From positions 384,001 to 448,000 of the forward strand of contig CAVZJB010000011.1 of NCBI GenBank assembly GCA_963775425.1: 64,000 nt of DNA, in the 5' to 3' direction. The position numbers and the translations under genes were made by a program. The notes beneath the pieces were generated by a model. It was not told where the DNA came from. It worked only from the letters and a program-made list of their open reading frames with translations, and made no database searches. The stretch is from an uncultured delta proteobacterium (GTDB taxonomy: Bacteria > Myxococcota > UBA727 > VGSZ01). Below, one piece after another: positions 8,217-49,517 of the stretch. Position 1 is the stretch's first letter, and every line of letters begins with the position of its first letter.

Positions 8217-9718
<1,502 letters not shown>

Positions 9719-12254: not shown

Positions 12255-13015
12255 CACTCAAGATCACCGTCCTCACGCTCTTTCCCGAGAGCCTGAGCTC
12301 CATCCTCGAGGCGAGCATCCTCGGCCGCGCGCGCAAGGACGGCCACGTCGTCGTCGACACCGTCGACATGCGCGACTTCTCGACCAACAAGCACCGCACC
12401 GTCGACGACACCCCCTCCGGCGGCGGCGCCGGCATGATCCTGCGCGTCGACGTCGTGAAGGGCGCGCTCGATCACGTGACCGCCGCCCAGGGTGCGCGCC
12501 GCCGCACCGTCCTCGTCGACGCGCGCGGCGCCCCCTTCGACCAACGCGCCGCTCGCCGCTACGCCGCGCTCGACGAGCTGGTCATCGTGTGCGGGCGCTA
12601 CGAGGGCGTCGACGCGCGCGCCGAGGCGTACGTGGACGAGGTCGTCTCCGCCGGCGACTTCGTGCTCACGGGCGGCGAGCTCGCGGCGCTCCTGATCATC
12701 GACGCCGCCGCGCGCCTGTTGCCCGGCGTCCTCGGGAACGAGGCGTCGAGCGCGCACGAGAGCCACGGCGAGGAGGGGCTCCTCGAGCACCGGCAGTACA
12801 CGCGCCCCGTGACCTTCGACGGCCGCTCCATCCCGCCCGTGCTCATGTCGGGCAACCACAAGCTCATCGACGCGGCCCGCAGGAAGGACGCCCTCCTCGT
12901 CACGCGCCGCCGCCGGCCCGAGCTGCTCGTGCGCGCGCGGCTCACCGCCGGCGACGACGCGCTCCTCGGCGACGATGACGTCGAGGGGCTCGCGCCGGGG
13001 GAGGCGTCGGCGTGA
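12251..13015 (+). CDS. trmD: tRNA (guanine37-N1)-methyltransferase
   Basis: TLFPE, VDDTPSGGGAGM, CGRYEGVD, GDFVLTGGE, QYTRP, SGNH. Confidence 0.97.
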   Translation: MTLKITVLTLFPESLSSILEASILGRARKDGHVVVDTVDMRDFSTNKHRTVDDTPSGGGAGMILRVDVVKGALDHVTAAQGARRRTVLVDARGAPFDQRAARRYAALDELVIVCGRYEGVDARAEAYVDEVVSAGDFVLTGGELAALLIIDAAARLLPGVLGNEASSAHESHGEEGLLEHRQYTRPVTFDGRSIPPVLMSGNHKLIDAARRKDALLVTRRRRPELLVRARLTAGDDALLGDDDVEGLAPGEASA

Positions 13016-13593
13016 CCGGGCGCGTCGCGGTTGCCCTGGTGCATCACCCGTGTCTCGACAAGCACGGCGAGATCTACACCACGTCCATCACCAACCTCGA
13101 CGTGCACGACATCGCGCGCGGCGCCACCACCTACGGCGTCGACGCGTTCTACGTCGTCACCCCCGTGAGCGCCCAGCAGAAGATGGCGCGGGCCATCGCC
13201 GCGTATTGGGAAGAGGGAGCGGGCCGGAAGCGAAACCCGGATCGCACCACCGCCATGCGCATCGTGCACGTGGTGGCGTCGGTGGAGGACGCGCGCGCCG
13301 CGGAGACCGCCGCGCTCGACGGCGCCGCGCCCCTCGTGGTGGCGACGTCGGCGAAGGAGCAGGGCGCGACTCCTTGCGCGTCGTTGCGCGCGCGCCTCGA
13401 AGCGGAAGACGGGAGCGCGCCCGCGGGGGCGCTCTTTCTGTTCGGGACCGGCCACGGCCTCGCGCACTCCCTCGTCGACGGCGCGGACGTCGTGCTCGAG
13501 CCCTTGCGGGGGCGCCCCGAGAAAAACGGCGGCTACAACCACCTGAGCGTGCGCTCGGCGGTGGCCATCTTCCTCGACCGCCTCCTCGGCTGA
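13012..13593 (+). CDS. SPOUT-type RNA methyltransferase of the family found downstream of trmD
   Basis: ALVHHP, TTSITNLDVHDIAR, FGTGHGL, YNHLSVRSAVAIFLDRLLG. Confidence 0.9.
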   Translation: MTGRVAVALVHHPCLDKHGEIYTTSITNLDVHDIARGATTYGVDAFYVVTPVSAQQKMARAIAAYWEEGAGRKRNPDRTTAMRIVHVVASVEDARAAETAALDGAAPLVVATSAKEQGATPCASLRARLEAEDGSAPAGALFLFGTGHGLAHSLVDGADVVLEPLRGRPEKNGGYNHLSVRSAVAIFLDRLLG

Positions 13594-13929
13594 GGCTGAC
13601 GAAAAACAAGGCTCGTAGCAGCACTCGGCGAAGCCGCCCACAAGGTGGCTCGCCGCGCGGAGTACGTGGCGAGGCACGTCGGCGCGCAAGAACCGCTGCA
13701 GGTTGTGAGGAAACGGCGGGTCCGAGCGGTGTTGTGATCCCGCTATCAGCGCACGTGGCGGGTTCGTGCGGGTCGTGTGCGCGCCGAGGTGCCTCGATGC
13801 GACGTCGGCTGCCGAAGGCTGGACAACGTCGCCACCGCCGGAGCGGAAAGGAGCGGAGAGCTCGGCGCCCCGGCGCTCAACTCGGCGCGCGTCTTCGTCG
13901 CCGAGCTCGCAGCTCCTTTCCGCTCCGCC
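13594..13929. mobile_element. Dispersed structured non-coding element, copy 1 (IS-end remnant or MITE-like)
   Basis: Near-identical to 48930-49352. Begins GGCTGACGAAAAA immediately after a stop codon. Inverted repeats at 13670-13688/13778-13796 and 13839-13854/13912-13927. The repeat itself is certain; the mobile origin is inferred. Confidence 0.65.
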
Positions 13930-13976
13930 ATCGGGCCAGCCCTCGTCGCCACTCGCGGCGCGAGCCGGCGCGGATC

Positions 13977-15371
<1,395 letters not shown>

Positions 15372-16569: not shown

Positions 16570-17901
16570 TCAGCGAATGGTCACGGCGATCTCGTAGGGG
16601 AGGGCGCCCGTGAAGCCGGAGCTGCCCTTGGCCACGGCGACGAAGAACCGTCGCGCCGCCGTGCCGTTGTTCCTCAGGGACGCGTCGCGCGGCGACGAGC
16701 CGGTGCCGTCGACGAACGCGCACGCGCCGTAGGCCGACGCGCGGCTCGCCACTTCGCCGCTCGCGTCGAGGATGGCGATGCGCGTGTTGAACGCGTCGCA
16801 GTCGGTGGCGTCGCTCGTGGGGATGACCTCGACGCGCGCGCCGCGGCCGGGGGCGACGTCGAGGCCGTACACGTCGACGTCGTCGACGCTGTCGATGGAT
16901 CCCGACATGAACACGTCGCGTCCGTCGGCGGCCGCGAGCTCGGCGGTGGCGGTGGTGCCGTTGGGCTCCACCTCGCGCCCGCGATCCTCGAGGACGGCGA
17001 GCTGCTCGTGGAAGCCGGGGATACGGTCGGTGCGATCGAACTGGGTGACGGCGACCCAATAGGTGCCTGCCGGCAGGCTCTCGGTCATCACCGCGCAGCT
17101 CCCGATCCCGTTGAACGCCGCCTCCCGCAGGAGCGCGGCGTCGGGGTTGTTCGCGTTCACGCTGTCGCTGAACAGGCCGAAGAGGCTCGCGGGCGCGCCG
17201 GTGATGCAGTCGTCGGCGCCGCCGGCGTCGAACATCTCGATGCGCACGACGGACGGCCGGGCGAGCGCCAGCCAATAGGCGTCGTCCTCGGACCAGTCGG
17301 GGCCTCCGGTGGGATCGCGGCGCAGGTCGATGCTGCCCTTGAGGCTGAATTGGGTGTCCGACAGGTGCAGCGCGTTCGGGTCGGGGAAGTCGTTGAGGTT
17401 GCGCTCGTTGACGGCGCGGTCGAGGTGGCAGGTGGAGGAGCAGCCGTCGCCGCTCACGCGGTTTCCGTCGTCGCAGGCCTCGAGCGGATCGACCGCGCCG
17501 TTGCCGCAGAGGGACGGCAGCACGGGATCCACCGCCGGCTCGCCCTCGCCCTCTCCCTCGCCTTCTCCTTCTCCCTCTCCCTCTCCCTCTCCCTCTCCTT
17601 CACCTTCACCTTCGCCCTCGCCGACGAGGAAGCCGGTGGTGTCGTCGCCTTCGCCCTCGCCTTCGCCTTCGCCGCTGTCGCGCGGGATCAGCTGCTCGCC
17701 CTCGCCCTCGCCGGCGCCTGCGTCGTTCGCGCCGGGACGCGCGGGGGAGGCGGGGCGGCAGATGCCGGCGCCGTCGTCGCACACCTCGCTGCCCGGGCAG
17801 GCCTCGCCGTGCTGGCACGGGGTGATGCCGAGGAACACCTCGCACCCGCCGCTGAGGGCGGCGGCGGCGGCGACAAGGAGGGCGAGGGAGCTCGGGCGCA
17901 T
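16570..17901 (-). CDS. Lipoprotein with (GE)n linkers, myxobacterial Cys-rich repeat and PPC-like domains
   Basis: Lipobox SGGC; CGNGAVDPLEACDDGNRVSGDGCSSTC; EVEPNGT...DDVDVY. Confidence 0.8.
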   Translation of the reverse strand: MRPSSLALLVAAAAALSGGCEVFLGITPCQHGEACPGSEVCDDGAGICRPASPARPGANDAGAGEGEGEQLIPRDSGEGEGEGEGDDTTGFLVGEGEGEGEGEGEGEGEGEGEGEGEGEGEPAVDPVLPSLCGNGAVDPLEACDDGNRVSGDGCSSTCHLDRAVNERNLNDFPDPNALHLSDTQFSLKGSIDLRRDPTGGPDWSEDDAYWLALARPSVVRIEMFDAGGADDCITGAPASLFGLFSDSVNANNPDAALLREAAFNGIGSCAVMTESLPAGTYWVAVTQFDRTDRIPGFHEQLAVLEDRGREVEPNGTTATAELAAADGRDVFMSGSIDSVDDVDVYGLDVAPGRGARVEVIPTSDATDCDAFNTRIAILDASGEVASRASAYGACAFVDGTGSSPRDASLRNNGTAARRFFVAVAKGSSGFTGALPYEIAVTIR

Positions 17902-37451: not shown

Positions 37452-37775
37452 ATGACCGACGGCTTCGAAAGACGCGACTCCCTCCGGCGCTACGCCCCGG
37501 TGAAGCTCTCGCCGCCCGACGGCGGAGCGCTCGTCGAGACGCGCGGCATCGTGTCCTTGCGCGGCGTGTTCCTCGAGGGGGCGCAGGCGCTGCCGTCGGC
37601 GTGGGGCAACGCCCTCATCGGCGTGGAGGCCGACCTCGGCGGCCCGGCGCTGCTGAAGGCCGTGTGCCTTGTGGCGCCGCCCGAGGCCGGGCGCGGAGGC
37701 TTCCTGCTCACCTGGAAGACGCTCGACTTTGAAAACGAGCGCGAGCTCGCCCGCTACCTCGACGAGACGCGCTGA
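37452..37775 (+). CDS. Small PilZ-like hypothetical protein
   Basis: ERRDSLR start, SLRGVFL, C-terminal ERELARYLD helix. Confidence 0.55.
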   Translation: MTDGFERRDSLRRYAPVKLSPPDGGALVETRGIVSLRGVFLEGAQALPSAWGNALIGVEADLGGPALLKAVCLVAPPEAGRGGFLLTWKTLDFENERELARYLDETR

Positions 37776-37894
37776 CGAGCCTGGCGGCGTGACGACATCC
37801 ACGGCGGAACCACGTTGTCGCTGACGACGACGATGTGCCCCGCCGCGAATGTCTACGCCGCGCGCCTTCGGCGCCTCTCTCGCATCGCCGGCCG

Positions 37895-44350: not shown

Positions 44351-45865
44351 GTGCGCCCCGTTGTCCTTCCTCTCGTCCTCACCGCGCTGCTGCCGCTCTC
44401 CGCCTGCTTCCTGTTCGACGATGTCAGCCTCGCGTGCGCCGGCGACGACAACTGCCCCGCGGGCGACACCTGCTCGTCGGGCACCTGCGTCGCCGCCGCC
44501 GGCGACGAGGGCGAGGGGGAGGGCGAAGGGGAAGGCGAAGGAGAGGGAGAGGGCGAAGGAGAGGGCGAAGGAGAGGGCGAAGGAGAGGGCGAAGGCGAGG
44601 GCGAGGGCGAGGGAGAGCTCTGCCCGGACAACACCTGCGGCGACGGCTGCCACGACGTGAGCGAGCAGTGCGACGACGGCGCGGCCAACAGCGACCTGAT
44701 CGCCAACCGCTGCCGCACCGACTGCACGCTGCCGCGCTGTGGCGACGCGGTGGTCGACGCGGGCGAGGCGTGCGACGAGGGCGCCTTCAACACCGACACC
44801 GAGCTCGGCGACGTCTGCCGCACCAACTGCGTCTTCGGCGACGCCTGGTCGAACGCCCCCACCGACGGCGCGCCCGGCGCGCGCACGGGGGCGGCGTCGT
44901 TCCTGAGCGGCAACGGCGTCGTGGTGTGGGGCGGCGACAGCGACAAGGACGGCGCGCGGCTCGACCTCGACACGCTCACGTGGCAGCCCATCGCCGACGG
45001 CCCCACCGAGATCAGCGTCGGCACCACCGCCGTCCTCGGAGACAAGCTCTTCGCGTTCCGCGGCGGCGTCCGCGGCACGGAGCCGGCCGGCGGCATCTAT
45101 GACGCGAGCACCGATACGTGGCACACGCTGCCGTCGACGGGCGCGCCGTCGGACCGCGTGCGGCCGAGCGCGGCGTTCCTCGACGCGAACACCGTCGTGG
45201 TCTTTGGCGGCAGCGCGGGCATCAGCGTGCTGATGCTCAACGACGCCTTCATCTACGACGTCGCCGGCGACCAATGGTTGCCGTTCACGCCCAACGGCAC
45301 GCCGCCGTCGCCGCGCCGCGACGCGGGCGTCGCCGTCGTCGGCGGCGACCTGTTCATCTGGGGCGGCGTCACCGACAGCGACACCTCCGCCACCACCAAC
45401 ACCGGCGCCCGCTTCGACCACACGCAGAACCGCTGGGTCGACATGACGACGACGGGCGCTCCCGCGCCGCGCACCGCGCCCACCCTGGTGCCGCTGAACG
45501 ACGGCCGCGTCGCGGTGCTCGCCGGCAGCATCGGCGACGGCTCCATCGGCGGCCTCGACGCCGCCATCTACGATCCCTCGAGCGACACGTGGTCGCCCAT
45601 CGCCGATCCCGTCCCGTGCCTTGGTTCCCGCAGCCCGGTCGCCCTCGTCGGCGACGAGCTCATCGCGCCGCTGTCGTGCAACGCGACACCGGGCGGCCGC
45701 TACTCACTGTCCGCCCAGACCTGGCGAGACACCGGGACCACCGGCGCGCCTCCCGGTCGGTTCTTCACCAACGCGGTCGTGACCCCCCGCGGCGTGTTCG
45801 TCTTCGGCGGCACCGCCCAGAACTTCTTCACCCAGACCGACGTCGGTGCGTTCTACGAGCCTTGA
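44351..45865 (+). CDS. Lipoprotein with Cys module, (GE)n linker, Cys-rich repeats and Kelch propeller
   Basis: AGGAG RBS plus GTG; lipobox LSAC; EQCDDG, CGD...EACD; repeated VWGG/FGG...YD...W. Confidence 0.82.
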   Translation: MRPVVLPLVLTALLPLSACFLFDDVSLACAGDDNCPAGDTCSSGTCVAAAGDEGEGEGEGEGEGEGEGEGEGEGEGEGEGEGEGEGEGELCPDNTCGDGCHDVSEQCDDGAANSDLIANRCRTDCTLPRCGDAVVDAGEACDEGAFNTDTELGDVCRTNCVFGDAWSNAPTDGAPGARTGAASFLSGNGVVVWGGDSDKDGARLDLDTLTWQPIADGPTEISVGTTAVLGDKLFAFRGGVRGTEPAGGIYDASTDTWHTLPSTGAPSDRVRPSAAFLDANTVVVFGGSAGISVLMLNDAFIYDVAGDQWLPFTPNGTPPSPRRDAGVAVVGGDLFIWGGVTDSDTSATTNTGARFDHTQNRWVDMTTTGAPAPRTAPTLVPLNDGRVAVLAGSIGDGSIGGLDAAIYDPSSDTWSPIADPVPCLGSRSPVALVGDELIAPLSCNATPGGRYSLSAQTWRDTGTTGAPPGRFFTNAVVTPRGVFVFGGTAQNFFTQTDVGAFYEP

Positions 45866-46520: not shown

Positions 46521-47225
46521 TCAGGCGTCGGTTTCACCGCGGGCGCGAATGAGCTTCGGCGGTGTGCCTCCCCAGATCTCGCGCGCCGGCAGCGTCGACG
46601 CCTTCTTCATGATGGAGCCGGCGGCGAGCACGGCGCCGTCGCCGAGGACGCAGCCGGGCATCACCTTCGCCCCGGTGCCGACCAGCGCGCCCTTGCCGAT
46701 GCGCACGGGGCGCATCTTCATCTTGCCGCCCTCGAGGATGTGGCCCTGAACGACGCAGTCGCCGCCGAGCACGGCGTCGTCCTCGATGGTGACGAGGTCC
46801 CACTCGTAGACGTGGATGGTGTTGATGCTCACGCGCCTCCCGATGTGCGCGCCCATCATGCGCAGGTAGAGGTTGAGAAACGGCGTCCCCTTCCAGTGCT
46901 GAAGGAAGAGCACGTTCGCCCAGTTGGTGAGCGCGCCGGTGGTGCCCCAGCCGACCACGGGCCAGGAGAACAGCGGCCACTCGCCCTCGCGGGGGCGATA
47001 GAAGACGAGCCACTTGTAGGCGACGCACAGGAGCACATAGCTCCAGCCCCACACCCCGTAGAGGAACGGCACCGACGCCACCGCCCACATCGTCGACGTC
47101 CAATACTGGATCCACACGAACGCGAACCAGCAGGGCAGGAGCGCCAGGCCCGAAAAGGCCGCACACAGCGAAAAGACGACGATCCCGCCGGCCCAACGGC
47201 CGAGGTCGATGACGAAGCCGGGCAT
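46521..47225 (-). CDS. Membrane-anchored hexapeptide-repeat (left-handed beta-helix) acyltransferase
   Basis: Two TM segments; GTPFLNLYLRMMGAHIG, VRIGKGALVG, WGGTP. Confidence 0.8.
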   Translation of the reverse strand: MPGFVIDLGRWAGGIVVFSLCAAFSGLALLPCWFAFVWIQYWTSTMWAVASVPFLYGVWGWSYVLLCVAYKWLVFYRPREGEWPLFSWPVVGWGTTGALTNWANVLFLQHWKGTPFLNLYLRMMGAHIGRRVSINTIHVYEWDLVTIEDDAVLGGDCVVQGHILEGGKMKMRPVRIGKGALVGTGAKVMPGCVLGDGAVLAAGSIMKKASTLPAREIWGGTPPKLIRARGETDA

Positions 47226-47286
47226 GTTTCACACCTCCGTGCGCACCGCGCCTCGGGCGAAGCAAGGACTATACTCGCGGCCGACG

Positions 47287-48927
47287 ATGAGCCCCGCCCC
47301 CGCTCACGCGGCGCCCGCCGCCCCCGACGGCGACGACGCGCTGCCTCGCCCGTTCGGTCCCTACTTGCTGCTCGCGCGCCTCGCGCGCGGCGGGATGGGC
47401 GAGGTGTTCCTCGCCAAGCACGGCGGGCTCCAGGGCTTCGAGAAGCACTGCGTGGTGAAGAGCCTGCGCGGCGACCTCGCGTCCCACGGCGAGTACGCGA
47501 ACCGCTTCGCGGAGGAGGCGCGCGTCGTCGTGCATCTGTCCCATCGCAACATCTGCTCGGTGTTCGACGTCGGTCGCGCCCAAGGCCAGCTCTATGTGGC
47601 CATGGAGCACATCGTCGGCGCCGACCTGCGGATGGTGACCTCGCGCGCGCGGATGACGCCGGCGCTCGCCGTGCACGTGATCTCCGAGGTGCTCGAGGCG
47701 CTCGACTACGCCCATCGCTTCGTCGACGCCGAGACCGAGCAGCCGCTCGCGCTCGTGCACCGCGACGTATCGCCGCACAACGTGCTGCTCGGGTGCGAGG
47801 GCGACGTGAAGCTCATCGACTTCGGCATCGCCACCAGCGCGCGGCTCGGCCCGGTCACCGACGACGGCACGGTCCTCGGCAAGCTCACGTACATGTCGCC
47901 GGAGCACGCGCGCGGGGACGCCGTCGACGGCCGCTCCGACGAATACGCCGCGGCGGTCCTGTTGACGGAGCTCCTCACCGGCGCCCCGTTCACCGACGGC
48001 CTGAGCCGCGAAGAGGCCTGGCGCATTTCGGGCCTCGGCGGTCATCGGCCGGAGCAGTTTTCGTCCATCGAAGCCGAGCTGCGCGCGGTCCTCGATCGTG
48101 CGCTCCAGCCGAGCGCGGAGGTGCGCTTCCCGACGTGCTCGGCGTTCGGCGACGCCATCGTGCAGTGGGCGCGCAAGCACGGCCACGTCGCGGACGCCCG
48201 CGACGTGCGTCGCATGATGGCCGGCATCTTCCCCGGCCTCGACGCCGAGACGCGCCACTTCGTGCGCGGCTTCCACGAAGTGCACGCGCCGTCGCTGGAG
48301 ACGGCGGTGAAGACGCCCGGCTTCGAGACCATCGCGACCACCATGATGATGGCGCCCACCACCGTCGGTGAGCACAGCGCGCCGCCGGCGAGCACCCCGG
48401 ACGTCCCCGGGACCCTGCCGGGCACCTCGGTGCTGCCGCCCGCGCGCACCTGGCTCCCGCGCGTGGCCGCCGGCGCCGCCGTCGTCCTCGCCGCCGCCGT
48501 CGGCCTCGCGGCGGGGCTCGCGCTCGATGGTCGCCGCGCGGCCGACGACGGCGAGCGTGTCGTCGCGCTACCCCCGTCGCCGCTGCCGCACGCGCCGCTC
48601 TCCGCGGACGCGGCCGGAGCCGCCGCGGCTGACCCCGACGCTGGCGCCGGCGCCGACGACGCGGTCGACGCCGCCGCGCGCGCCGACGACGACGACGACG
48701 CAGGCAAGGCCAGGGGGGCCCACGCCGGGGTGCGCCCCCGCAAGCGCGGCGCGCGCATCGACGCCGACACGCGCCGAACGCTGACGTACCTCAACGGCTG
48801 CGTGGGCGTCGTGACCTGCGCGCCGGGCGTGCTCGAGTGGAGCCGGCGCCACCTGAGCGGCCCCGAGCGCGATCAGCTCGCCGACGCCGTCGCCGACTGC
48901 GCGCAGAAGTGCCGCCTCAAGCGGTGA
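47287..48927 (+). CDS. Membrane Ser/Thr protein kinase
   Basis: GGMGEV, VVK, HRDVSPHN, DFG, YMSPE; TM segment; Cys-containing C-terminus. Confidence 0.92.
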   Translation: MSPAPAHAAPAAPDGDDALPRPFGPYLLLARLARGGMGEVFLAKHGGLQGFEKHCVVKSLRGDLASHGEYANRFAEEARVVVHLSHRNICSVFDVGRAQGQLYVAMEHIVGADLRMVTSRARMTPALAVHVISEVLEALDYAHRFVDAETEQPLALVHRDVSPHNVLLGCEGDVKLIDFGIATSARLGPVTDDGTVLGKLTYMSPEHARGDAVDGRSDEYAAAVLLTELLTGAPFTDGLSREEAWRISGLGGHRPEQFSSIEAELRAVLDRALQPSAEVRFPTCSAFGDAIVQWARKHGHVADARDVRRMMAGIFPGLDAETRHFVRGFHEVHAPSLETAVKTPGFETIATTMMMAPTTVGEHSAPPASTPDVPGTLPGTSVLPPARTWLPRVAAGAAVVLAAAVGLAAGLALDGRRAADDGERVVALPPSPLPHAPLSADAAGAAAADPDAGAGADDAVDAAARADDDDDAGKARGAHAGVRPRKRGARIDADTRRTLTYLNGCVGVVTCAPGVLEWSRRHLSGPERDQLADAVADCAQKCRLKR

Positions 48928-48929
48928 AA

Positions 48930-49352
48930 GGCTGACGAAGAAATGTTGCTCGTAGCAGCACTCGGCGAAGCCGCCCACAAGGTGGCTCGCCGCGCGGAGT
49001 AGTACGTGGCGAGGCACGTCGGCGCGCAAGAACCGCTGCAGGTTGTGAGGAAACGGCGGGTCCGAGCGGTGTTGTGATCCCGCTATCAGCGCACGTGGCG
49101 GGTTCGTGCGGGTCGTGTGCGCGCCGACGTGCCTCGATGCGACGTCGGCGCGGACTTCAGGCGGTGAGCTTCGCGAGGTTCTGCAGCAGGTTGAAGGCCA
49201 CGGCCTGGGTCTTCAGCTTGGGCGCTCGGAATCAGCGAAGGCTAGACAACGTCGCCACCGCCGGAGCGGAAAGGAGCGGAGAGCTCGGCGCCCCGGCGCT
49301 CAACTCGGCGCGCGTCTTCGTCGCCGAGCTCGGAGCTCCTTTCCGCTCCGCC
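48930..49352. mobile_element. Dispersed structured non-coding element, copy 2, with an ~86-bp extra segment
   Basis: Matches 13594-13929. Perfect 19-bp IR at 49010-49028/49118-49136 and 16-bp IR at 49262-49277/49335-49350. The extra 49150-49235 reads KTQAVAFNLLQNLAKLTA* on the minus strand. Confidence 0.65.
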
Positions 49353-49517
49353 GTGTGGCCGGAGCACCGTCCCCTTCCGGGTGGCTCGGATCAACGGTCC
49401 ATCGGAGCGCAGCCGCCACGAGCCTGGGAGCCGCGAACGATCGGACGCGGCCGCTCCAAAACAGGACACCCCGGACGCGCGCGGGGGCGGCGCCCGGGCA
49501 TCTCGTAGTGTCGCCGC

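Follow-up and report, generated by a model that had tools for sequence, protein, structure and literature searches.

The question raised by this locus is whether a repeated, hairpin-rich sequence lying directly behind two genes is a structured RNA or the remnant of a mobile element. The window, that is, the whole stretch of DNA analysed, comprises 64,000 nucleotides of an uncultured delta proteobacterium (contig CAVZJB010000011.1, positions 384,001 to 448,000), the assembled genome of which amounts to 8.26 Mb in 18 contigs. An earlier note, made from the letters alone, described two near-identical copies and read them as an uncharacterised non-autonomous element or as an IS-end RNA that targets the 3' ends of genes. 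Alignment of 13594-13929 (copy 1) with 48929-49352 (copy 2) confirmed that the two are near-identical over their whole length. They differ by a 3-nt indel in a hairpin loop, where copy 2 has the insertion, by a few substitutions, and by an extra ~83 nt present only in copy 2 and composed of 15 C-terminal transposase codons and the stop, plus short filler. Each copy begins 0-2 nt from the TGA stop in which the ORFs 13012-13593 and 47209-48927 end. The right boundaries required revision, since blastn with an extended query gave true extents of 13593-13961 and 48929-49405.

The gene upstream of copy 1 (13012..13593, forward strand, from the ORF list) encodes a SAM-dependent RNA methyltransferase (Pfam PF09936), and its native TGA stop at 13591-13593 on the same strand is the insertion target. 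The gene-proximal arm of copy 1 (13593..13808, forward strand, element positions 1-216) was delimited by blastn against the longest copy in the genome (C17:334185-335926), by alignment and by folding. The arm opens with the terminal inverted repeat AGGCTGACG, followed by a variable, A-rich linker and then by a non-coding region with multiple hairpins. In the parent IS this region separates the transposase stop codon from the inverted repeat, the transposase being encoded on the minus strand. Next on the forward strand are 13813..13937, from the region upstream of the transposase start (element ~1487-1611; blastn and fold) and containing an 88-nt near-perfect palindrome in the predicted fold at 13839-13927, and 13928..13961, a further fragment of the same upstream region (element ~1650-1683; blastn with the extended query). 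Copy 1 has lost its right inverted repeat, together with any right-hand TGA. Copy 2 follows the TGA stop (48925..48927, forward strand, from the ORF list) of a Ser/Thr protein kinase gene (47209-48927, Pfam Pkinase); this stop, the target of copy 2, passed the in-frame test described below with a GC3 of 0.95 (row C11 432929). The gene-proximal arm (48929..49204, forward strand, element 1-271; blastn and translation) holds the inverted repeat, the non-coding region and the transposase C-terminus, the last 15 codons of which translate on the minus strand at 49157-49204 to AVAFNLLQNLAKLTA followed by the stop. The region upstream of the transposase start follows at 49216..49405 on the forward strand (element ~1467-1656; blastn); it includes the same long hairpin as copy 1 at ~49262-49350, as read by eye, and the right inverted repeat is again deleted. 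The two copies are 369 and 477 bp long and end at element positions 1683 and 1656 of 1742. The presence of the transposase C-terminus in copy 2 identifies the left 216-270 bp as the sequence between the transposase stop and the element end, and the right part as the sequence upstream of the transposase start. The A-rich linker (AAAYRRGG) directly after the inverted repeat, at window positions 13604-13611 and 48940-48948 (element 12-18), differs among copies, mostly by transitions; the next 200 nt are conserved at 95-100% among 26 copies.

A search of the same genome returned 79 matching pieces, and blastn of the whole genome with the longest copy grouped all matches into 81 loci carrying some part of the element, a census that replaces the two copies known before. 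The sole near-full-length locus is that on contig C17 (1742 bp), which holds everything found in the other loci. It contains three collinear ORF pieces on the minus strand, opposite to the window orientation, that match NCBIfam NF033551 (IS1182 family transposase) at positions 26-183, 187-343 and 411-484 of 488 (E = 2e-32, 1e-24 and 7e-13; 112.5, 86.9 and 48.3 bits) and also match Pfam DUF772 and DDE_Tnp_1_6. Each piece scored below the whole-protein cut-off of 270 for NF033551 because the gene is split; intact relatives in two other genomes scored 314.7 (G056) and 369.9 (G089). Members of the IS1182 family range in size from ~1.3 to 2 kb, and the C17 copy is bounded by terminal inverted repeats 1742 bp apart and carries a DDE transposase that matches the family model. 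By these results the element is of a known kind, an IS1182-family insertion sequence, and not a new RNA. They bear out the assignment of the GGCTGACGAAAAA terminus to an IS1182/IS5-type element. The interpretation in the earlier note is partly supported: the copies are non-autonomous, and they match a family, IS1182, that is already described.

The transposase gene of the C17 copy is frameshifted and lacks profile positions 344-410 (~67 codons), so that even this copy is dead. Neither an intact transposase of this exact family nor an intact, potentially active copy was found in the assembly. The remaining loci are nested subsets of the C17 sequence with internal gaps and differing breakpoints. 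The first 50 bases of the element are present at 62 of the 81 loci, and coverage is U-shaped, falling from that number to 1-5 loci in the centre and rising again to 52 at positions 1601-1650. The copies in the window are an IS1182-family IS reduced to its joined non-coding ends and, as deletion derivatives of a C17-type parent, cannot move on their own. The genome therefore holds many copies and a broken parent, not two copies without any transposase-bearing parent, and the view of them as non-autonomous and IS-derived is upheld. The family of 81 loci looks extinct in this assembly.

A reading that we regard as possible, and only tentatively so, is that of the short copies as true MITEs, in which a now-lost transposase would have spread a small number of deleted masters in trans, as opposed to copies that decayed in situ. 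Identical internal junctions do occur at different loci (490>1383 in 4, 285>1086 in 4 and 1518>1582 in 14), so that the shortening need not all have occurred in place, and the gene-proximal inverted repeat is kept in most copies. The 1518>1582 junction is the collapse of the long palindrome. Deletions recurring at the palindrome, or at short repeats common to the copies, could also have produced the common junctions. The majority of junctions are unique, with copy sizes of 38 to 1176 bp, which argues for decay, as does alignment of the last 42 element bases at only 10 of the 81 loci, a count that is too low because BLAST does not align short terminal pieces beyond a deletion. A MITE is a short unit with both inverted repeats and a target duplication, and the far inverted repeat is missing from both window copies. 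Deletion in place is accordingly the reading adopted here for the window copies. An identical sequence was observed 766 bases from three contig ends (C9:766, C17:766 and C11:1143998 of this genome, G000), where a different, unassembled repeat probably breaks the assembly.

The ends of the element were defined from the same set of loci. All 62 left ends consist of TGA, then 0-2 A, then GGCTGACGAA. The left junction reads TGA followed by AAGGCTGACGAA and the right junction ACGCGTCAGCCTC followed by TGA; the true right end obtained with the extended query is ACGTTACGCGTCAGCCTC, after which TGA stands in the best-kept copies. The inverted repeats are 9-10 bp long (AAGGCTGACG on the left and its reverse-complement counterpart GAGGCTGACG on the right), with TGA on both flanks. 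A clean TGA within 6 nt was kept at only 10 of the 25 candidate right ends in this genome, for which reason the duplication of the target has to be judged partly from relatives. An empty site of this species was sought by exact-pattern scans of metagenome and genome contigs and by a protein-based scan, and none was found.

As DNA the element was detected in none of 40 relatives searched by blastn, which gave weak matches inside the transposase gene only; exact patterns run against large collections (two on metagenome contigs, one on genome contigs) returned nothing, and a protein-based scan of genome contigs returned no relative. Of 201 genomes sampled across the phylum, 26 (G000 among them) encode a protein homologue. 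One of these, G089, carries nine copies of a 1.5-kb IS that are 99-100% identical to one another and the transposase N-terminus of which is 42% identical to that of the G000 element. In G089 and two related species (G194/G197), 15 of 15 left ends read TGA followed by GAGAGCGTGAAGG, and all 14 right ends found read CACGGTCCC followed by TGA; ten of the 15 left TGAs terminate, in frame, ORFs that are 196-862 codons long and have a GC3 of 0.95-1.0. In one case an orthologue lacking the IS was available, in G197, and its TGA stop follows the same final residue. Among intact relatives the closest, at 51% identity, is the IS of G056. TGA flanks it on both sides, and it lies ~100 nt beyond a stop, within one arm of a long inverted repeat; when its empty site was rebuilt, the palindrome scored 29 with one TGA, 22 with none and 25 with two. 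The flanks of all five G160 copies read CTCA, which is TGAG on the opposite strand, and two of these copies occupy in-frame stops. CTAG flanks were found on the more distant IS1182-type elements of G174, G105 and G182. Orientation is fixed within each IS and differs between them, the transposase being convergent with the host gene in G000 and G160 and co-directional with it in G089 and G056. Taken together, the intact relatives and the decayed copies suggest that the element of this genome likewise produced a 3-bp duplication of TGA. Two local features of these relatives were recorded. The IS-bearing inverted repeat of G056 (locus L086) is 26 bp long, has GTCAGAA heptads and AAAAGG/CCTTTT flanks, and looks like a two-way terminator. 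In G089, a ~150-nt repeat starting TGAGAGCACGTGAACCCATCC stands directly after the right end of the IS at L075, L076, L077, L081 and L082, adjoining 5 of the 10 G089 IS copies examined, and has a separate copy in L073; its start resembles the inverted repeat of the IS, and it is probably that IS's own MITE, stacked with it on one TGA.

The position of the copies relative to genes is strict. TGA is present at the junction of 62 of 62 left ends. Among the 61 left ends found by motif scan, this TGA is in frame with a GC3-rich ORF (at least 60 codons, GC3 at least 0.85) in 55, or 56 when copy 1 is included, which the scan missed owing to a motif offset and which was added by an eye check; two others lie 5-7 nt past a stop and three elsewhere. 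All insertions at stop codons have the same orientation, with the transposase-3' end toward the host gene. The expectation that the element occurs at gene 3' ends was therefore correct and can be made more exact, since the copies sit on the TGA stop codons of native genes (56/61). It could be argued that the element has instead cut off the ends of its host genes and now supplies their stop, given that TGA is the first triplet at the junction of every copy and that a second TGA 8 nt inside the inverted repeat would soon stop two of the three frames. Random insertion would place the first TGA in frame in one third of cases, against the 55-56 of 61 observed. Moreover, NCBIfam models matched 11 of 28 upstream proteins scanned, and nine of these 11 matches run to the profile end near the C-terminus: YchF (368/368), a TonB C-terminal domain (TonB_C, 75/76), GspN (279/280), NAD kinase (255/257), HemN (449/454), an OmpA-like protein (206/206), DnaK (595/596), an LIC13292 family protein (162/166) and a NodT-type protein (458/460); the other two matches are internal. 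The methyltransferase gene before copy 1 is complete, as PF09936 covers residues 5-193 of 193 and profile positions 2-182 of 182, and for the related IS the IS-free orthologue ends with TGA at the same residue. An origin of the stops from the element is thus barely credible; judged by these comparisons, the upstream genes are not truncated and the TGA is the gene's own. A search of full-text literature found no description of a stop-codon-targeting IS, and the habit of sitting on TGA stops is, as far as we found, undescribed.

We are accordingly highly confident that both repeats in the window are fossils of an IS1182-family IS that inserted at TGA stops and was later internally deleted. The parent, ~1.74 kb as found, would probably have measured ~1.9-2 kb when intact, with inverted repeats of 9-10 bp and a DDE transposase gene between two non-coding ends that are rich in hairpins and unusually long. 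Each copy would have been inserted by DDE transposition at the TGA stop of a host gene, preferentially in the context C-TGA-G, and with the transposase-3' end always toward that gene. Since TGA would have been duplicated on insertion, the host gene would have kept its stop. The transposase gene would then have been lost by later internal deletions, which in the window copies also took away the far inverted repeat, leaving the two non-coding ends joined. The order of these events, insertion before decay, is what we infer from the structure of the copies.

Whether the placement on stop codons reflects a preference of the enzyme, or merely a short motif together with selection against insertions that break genes, was evaluated against the distribution of TGA in the genome, with a crude GC3-based gene call that is rough and over-counts non-genic sites. 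By this call, the 145,829 TGA triplets on both strands comprise 5,067 stop codons (3.5%), 28,024 non-genic sites and 112,738 sites inside genes. The base before TGA is C at 83% of occupied sites compared with 42% of all TGA stops, and the base after it is G at 6 of 10 right flanks compared with 30% of all stops. For CTGAG or GCTGAGC sites, stops make up 0.28-0.33 of the sites at which insertion would not break a gene, and lengthening the motif to GCTGAGC brought no increase in the stop-codon share beyond this range. The probability of at least 55 of 61 insertions on stops is 2e-20 at p = 0.33 and 3e-11 at p = 0.5. Motif plus selection accounts for about a third at most of the stop placement. 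Considering the rough gene call and possible selection against insertions upstream of genes, the case for a real gene-end preference is evenly balanced. The same equal chance is given to the broader proposal that a clade of IS1182 elements in the Myxococcota inserts site- and orientation-specifically at TGA stops, beyond C-TGA-G and selection and with duplication of TGA, and to the membership proposed for it: this element, a sister family B described below, and the ISs of G089/G194/G197, G056 and G160. If true, a preference beyond the motif would need some other way of sensing gene ends, and the transposon would fill a gene-dense, GC-rich genome almost harmlessly, with host genes keeping their stops. 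A hairpin next to the stop was considered as such a cue: the 50 nt 3' of occupied TGAs in G089/G194/G197 folded no better than those of 28 other TGA stops (p = 0.36), a weak comparison because the sample wrongly took in reverse-strand rows. Copies of this one family stand on ~9% of the C-TGA-G stop codons of the genome (55/610), and so the elements may shape 3' ends and termination genome-wide.

The hairpins that gave rise to the RNA hypothesis are real features of the predicted folds, in which the stems named in the earlier note were recovered, including the 19-bp stem (one mismatch in copy 1) and the 16+10-bp nested palindrome. When compared with 100 dinucleotide shuffles, copy 1 folded with z = -4.65 on the forward strand and z = -4.87 on the reverse strand, and no shuffle equalled the native fold on either strand; such symmetry between the strands is expected of palindromic DNA. 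For an IS, the non-coding regions are long: ~270 nt follow the transposase stop and ~290 nt precede the transposase start. The very stable forward fold, these long regions and the strict choice of target and orientation could be taken to mean that the arm encodes a structured IS RNA, comparable with the bridge or seek RNA of IS110/IS1111 or the omega RNA of IS200/IS605, which guides or regulates insertion at gene ends. This is very unlikely. The parent encodes a DDE transposase of the IS1182 family and neither a DEDD nor a Y1/TnpB enzyme, and we know of no RNA guide for IS1182-family DDE enzymes. The reverse strand folds as well as the forward. In Rfam, searched with a permissive E-value over 13400-14100, no model reached its gathering score, the sub-threshold matches being microRNA-like and to the palindrome, and none of 74 predicted pairs covaried among 26 copies, which are too alike to be informative. 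The non-coding ends, compared by blastn (word size 7) with nine related IS loci, matched only in the C-terminal coding part of the transposase, and the relatives in G089 and G056, with the same TGA target, have no sequence similarity in these regions. Finally, the number of loci per 50-nt bin along the arm (62, 60, 46, 38, 32 and 22) declines gradually, with no protected block. The candidate structured RNA is thereby explained away, and the 81 loci are to be masked as IS1182 remnants and not as an RNA gene.

Two known classes of element were also considered and rejected for the parent. IS110/IS1111 with a bridge or seek RNA does not fit a DDE IS1182 transposase accompanied by no Rfam family above threshold and no covariation. 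Elements of IS200/IS605 have no inverted repeats, carry subterminal hairpins and insert 3' of a short motif without duplication; the parent copy has no Y1/TnpB gene, inverted repeats are present, and TGA is duplicated in the relatives.

Selection by the host could in principle explain why so many arms persist, if they had been taken over as terminators or 3'-end stabilisers of the upstream genes and kept for that role. The arm always stands right after the stop codon and is read in the direction of the host transcript, it contains strong stems, insertion separates the gene from its former downstream sequence, and a strong hairpin likewise marks the gene-proximal end of sister family B. A scan for promoters and simple terminators nevertheless found nothing inside the element and predicted no U-tract terminator, and retention drops steadily from the junction, as expected if deletions simply cannot cross into the gene. 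Such a takeover is therefore considered unlikely, although less so than a guide RNA. Our best guess is that the hairpins are the IS's own subterminal structures, which may bind transposase or insulate the element against transcription from the host gene.

Sister family B is represented in the window by one copy (37776..37890, forward strand), recognised by motif scan (row C11 421783) and sequence, which has the hairpin end GCGGCGTGACGAC and runs to GAATGTC. It lies right after the stop TGA at 37773-37775; the motif scan puts the stop 8 nt upstream. The genome contains 54 left ends of family B. An in-frame stop lies no more than 12 nt from 25 of them, and 11 come immediately after the right end of another element, either a second B copy or a copy of the present family (A). 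The gene-proximal end GCGGCGTGACGACATTCACGGCGG is inside a hairpin of ~70 nt, and the right end, GGATCACGTTGCGCGTCACCCTT followed by TGA, is much like that of the present IS1182 family. Several right ends of the 81-locus family run straight into a B copy, and these abutments are read as repeated insertions on the same regenerated TGA. TGAnnTGA was often observed to precede family B copies and could be an excision footprint or part of the family B inverted repeat.

The closest described behaviour is that of IS1272, an IS1182-family element of staphylococci. IS1272 is reported (PMC5678879) to insert into hairpin-forming inverted repeats, two of three new insertions being 15 and 66 bp after genes, and to replace the target hairpin, leaving no duplication. 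The element described here shares with IS1182/IS1272 the type of transposase, short terminal inverted repeats, a length of ~1.5-1.9 kb and a frequent position just downstream of genes; it differs from IS1272 in that the junction is the triplet TGA on a stop codon, with fixed orientation, and is duplicated in intact relatives. Its non-coding ends are also much longer and have no similar sequence in the relatives compared.

Further resemblances are found outside the family. Subgroups of the IS5 family and eukaryotic PIF/Harbinger elements produce 3-bp TNA/TWA duplications. The present element is like them in several respects: its DDE transposase is related to theirs, its target is short and nearly palindromic (C-TGA-G), the duplication, clear in its intact relatives, spans 3 bp, and numerous non-autonomous derivatives have arisen by internal deletion. 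To our knowledge, insertion of those elements occurs in both orientations and has no tie to stop codons, unlike that of the element here, which is found in one orientation and on stop codons. Bacterial MITEs such as MITEAba12 arise from ISs by internal deletion and, like the short copies, are non-coding, non-autonomous, composed of two IS ends, numerous and intergenic, but in the present family the breakpoints vary by copy and many copies, both window copies among them, lack one inverted repeat. IS1397 and ISPpu9/10, which target repeated extragenic palindromes, share with this element site- and orientation-specific insertion beside gene ends and tandem pile-ups with other repeats, and differ from it in the transposase family and in the nature of the target, here a stop codon. 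Exact placement on a stop codon, in one orientation, holds for about 90% of the copies, and recently active relatives in other genera are alike. Should this reflect a true insertion preference, it would constitute a natural DDE transposon with a 'safe harbour' at gene ends, and the target rule is directly testable with the intact relatives.

The output of the repeat finder for the window is dominated by another kind of sequence, 12-nt periodic repeats of GGCGAG/GGCGAA units at 14977-15215, 17492-17658, 44464-44636 and 8365-8487. These repeats fall within several ORFs (Gly/Glu-rich or the reverse), including that at 13977-15371, which is convergent on copy 1.
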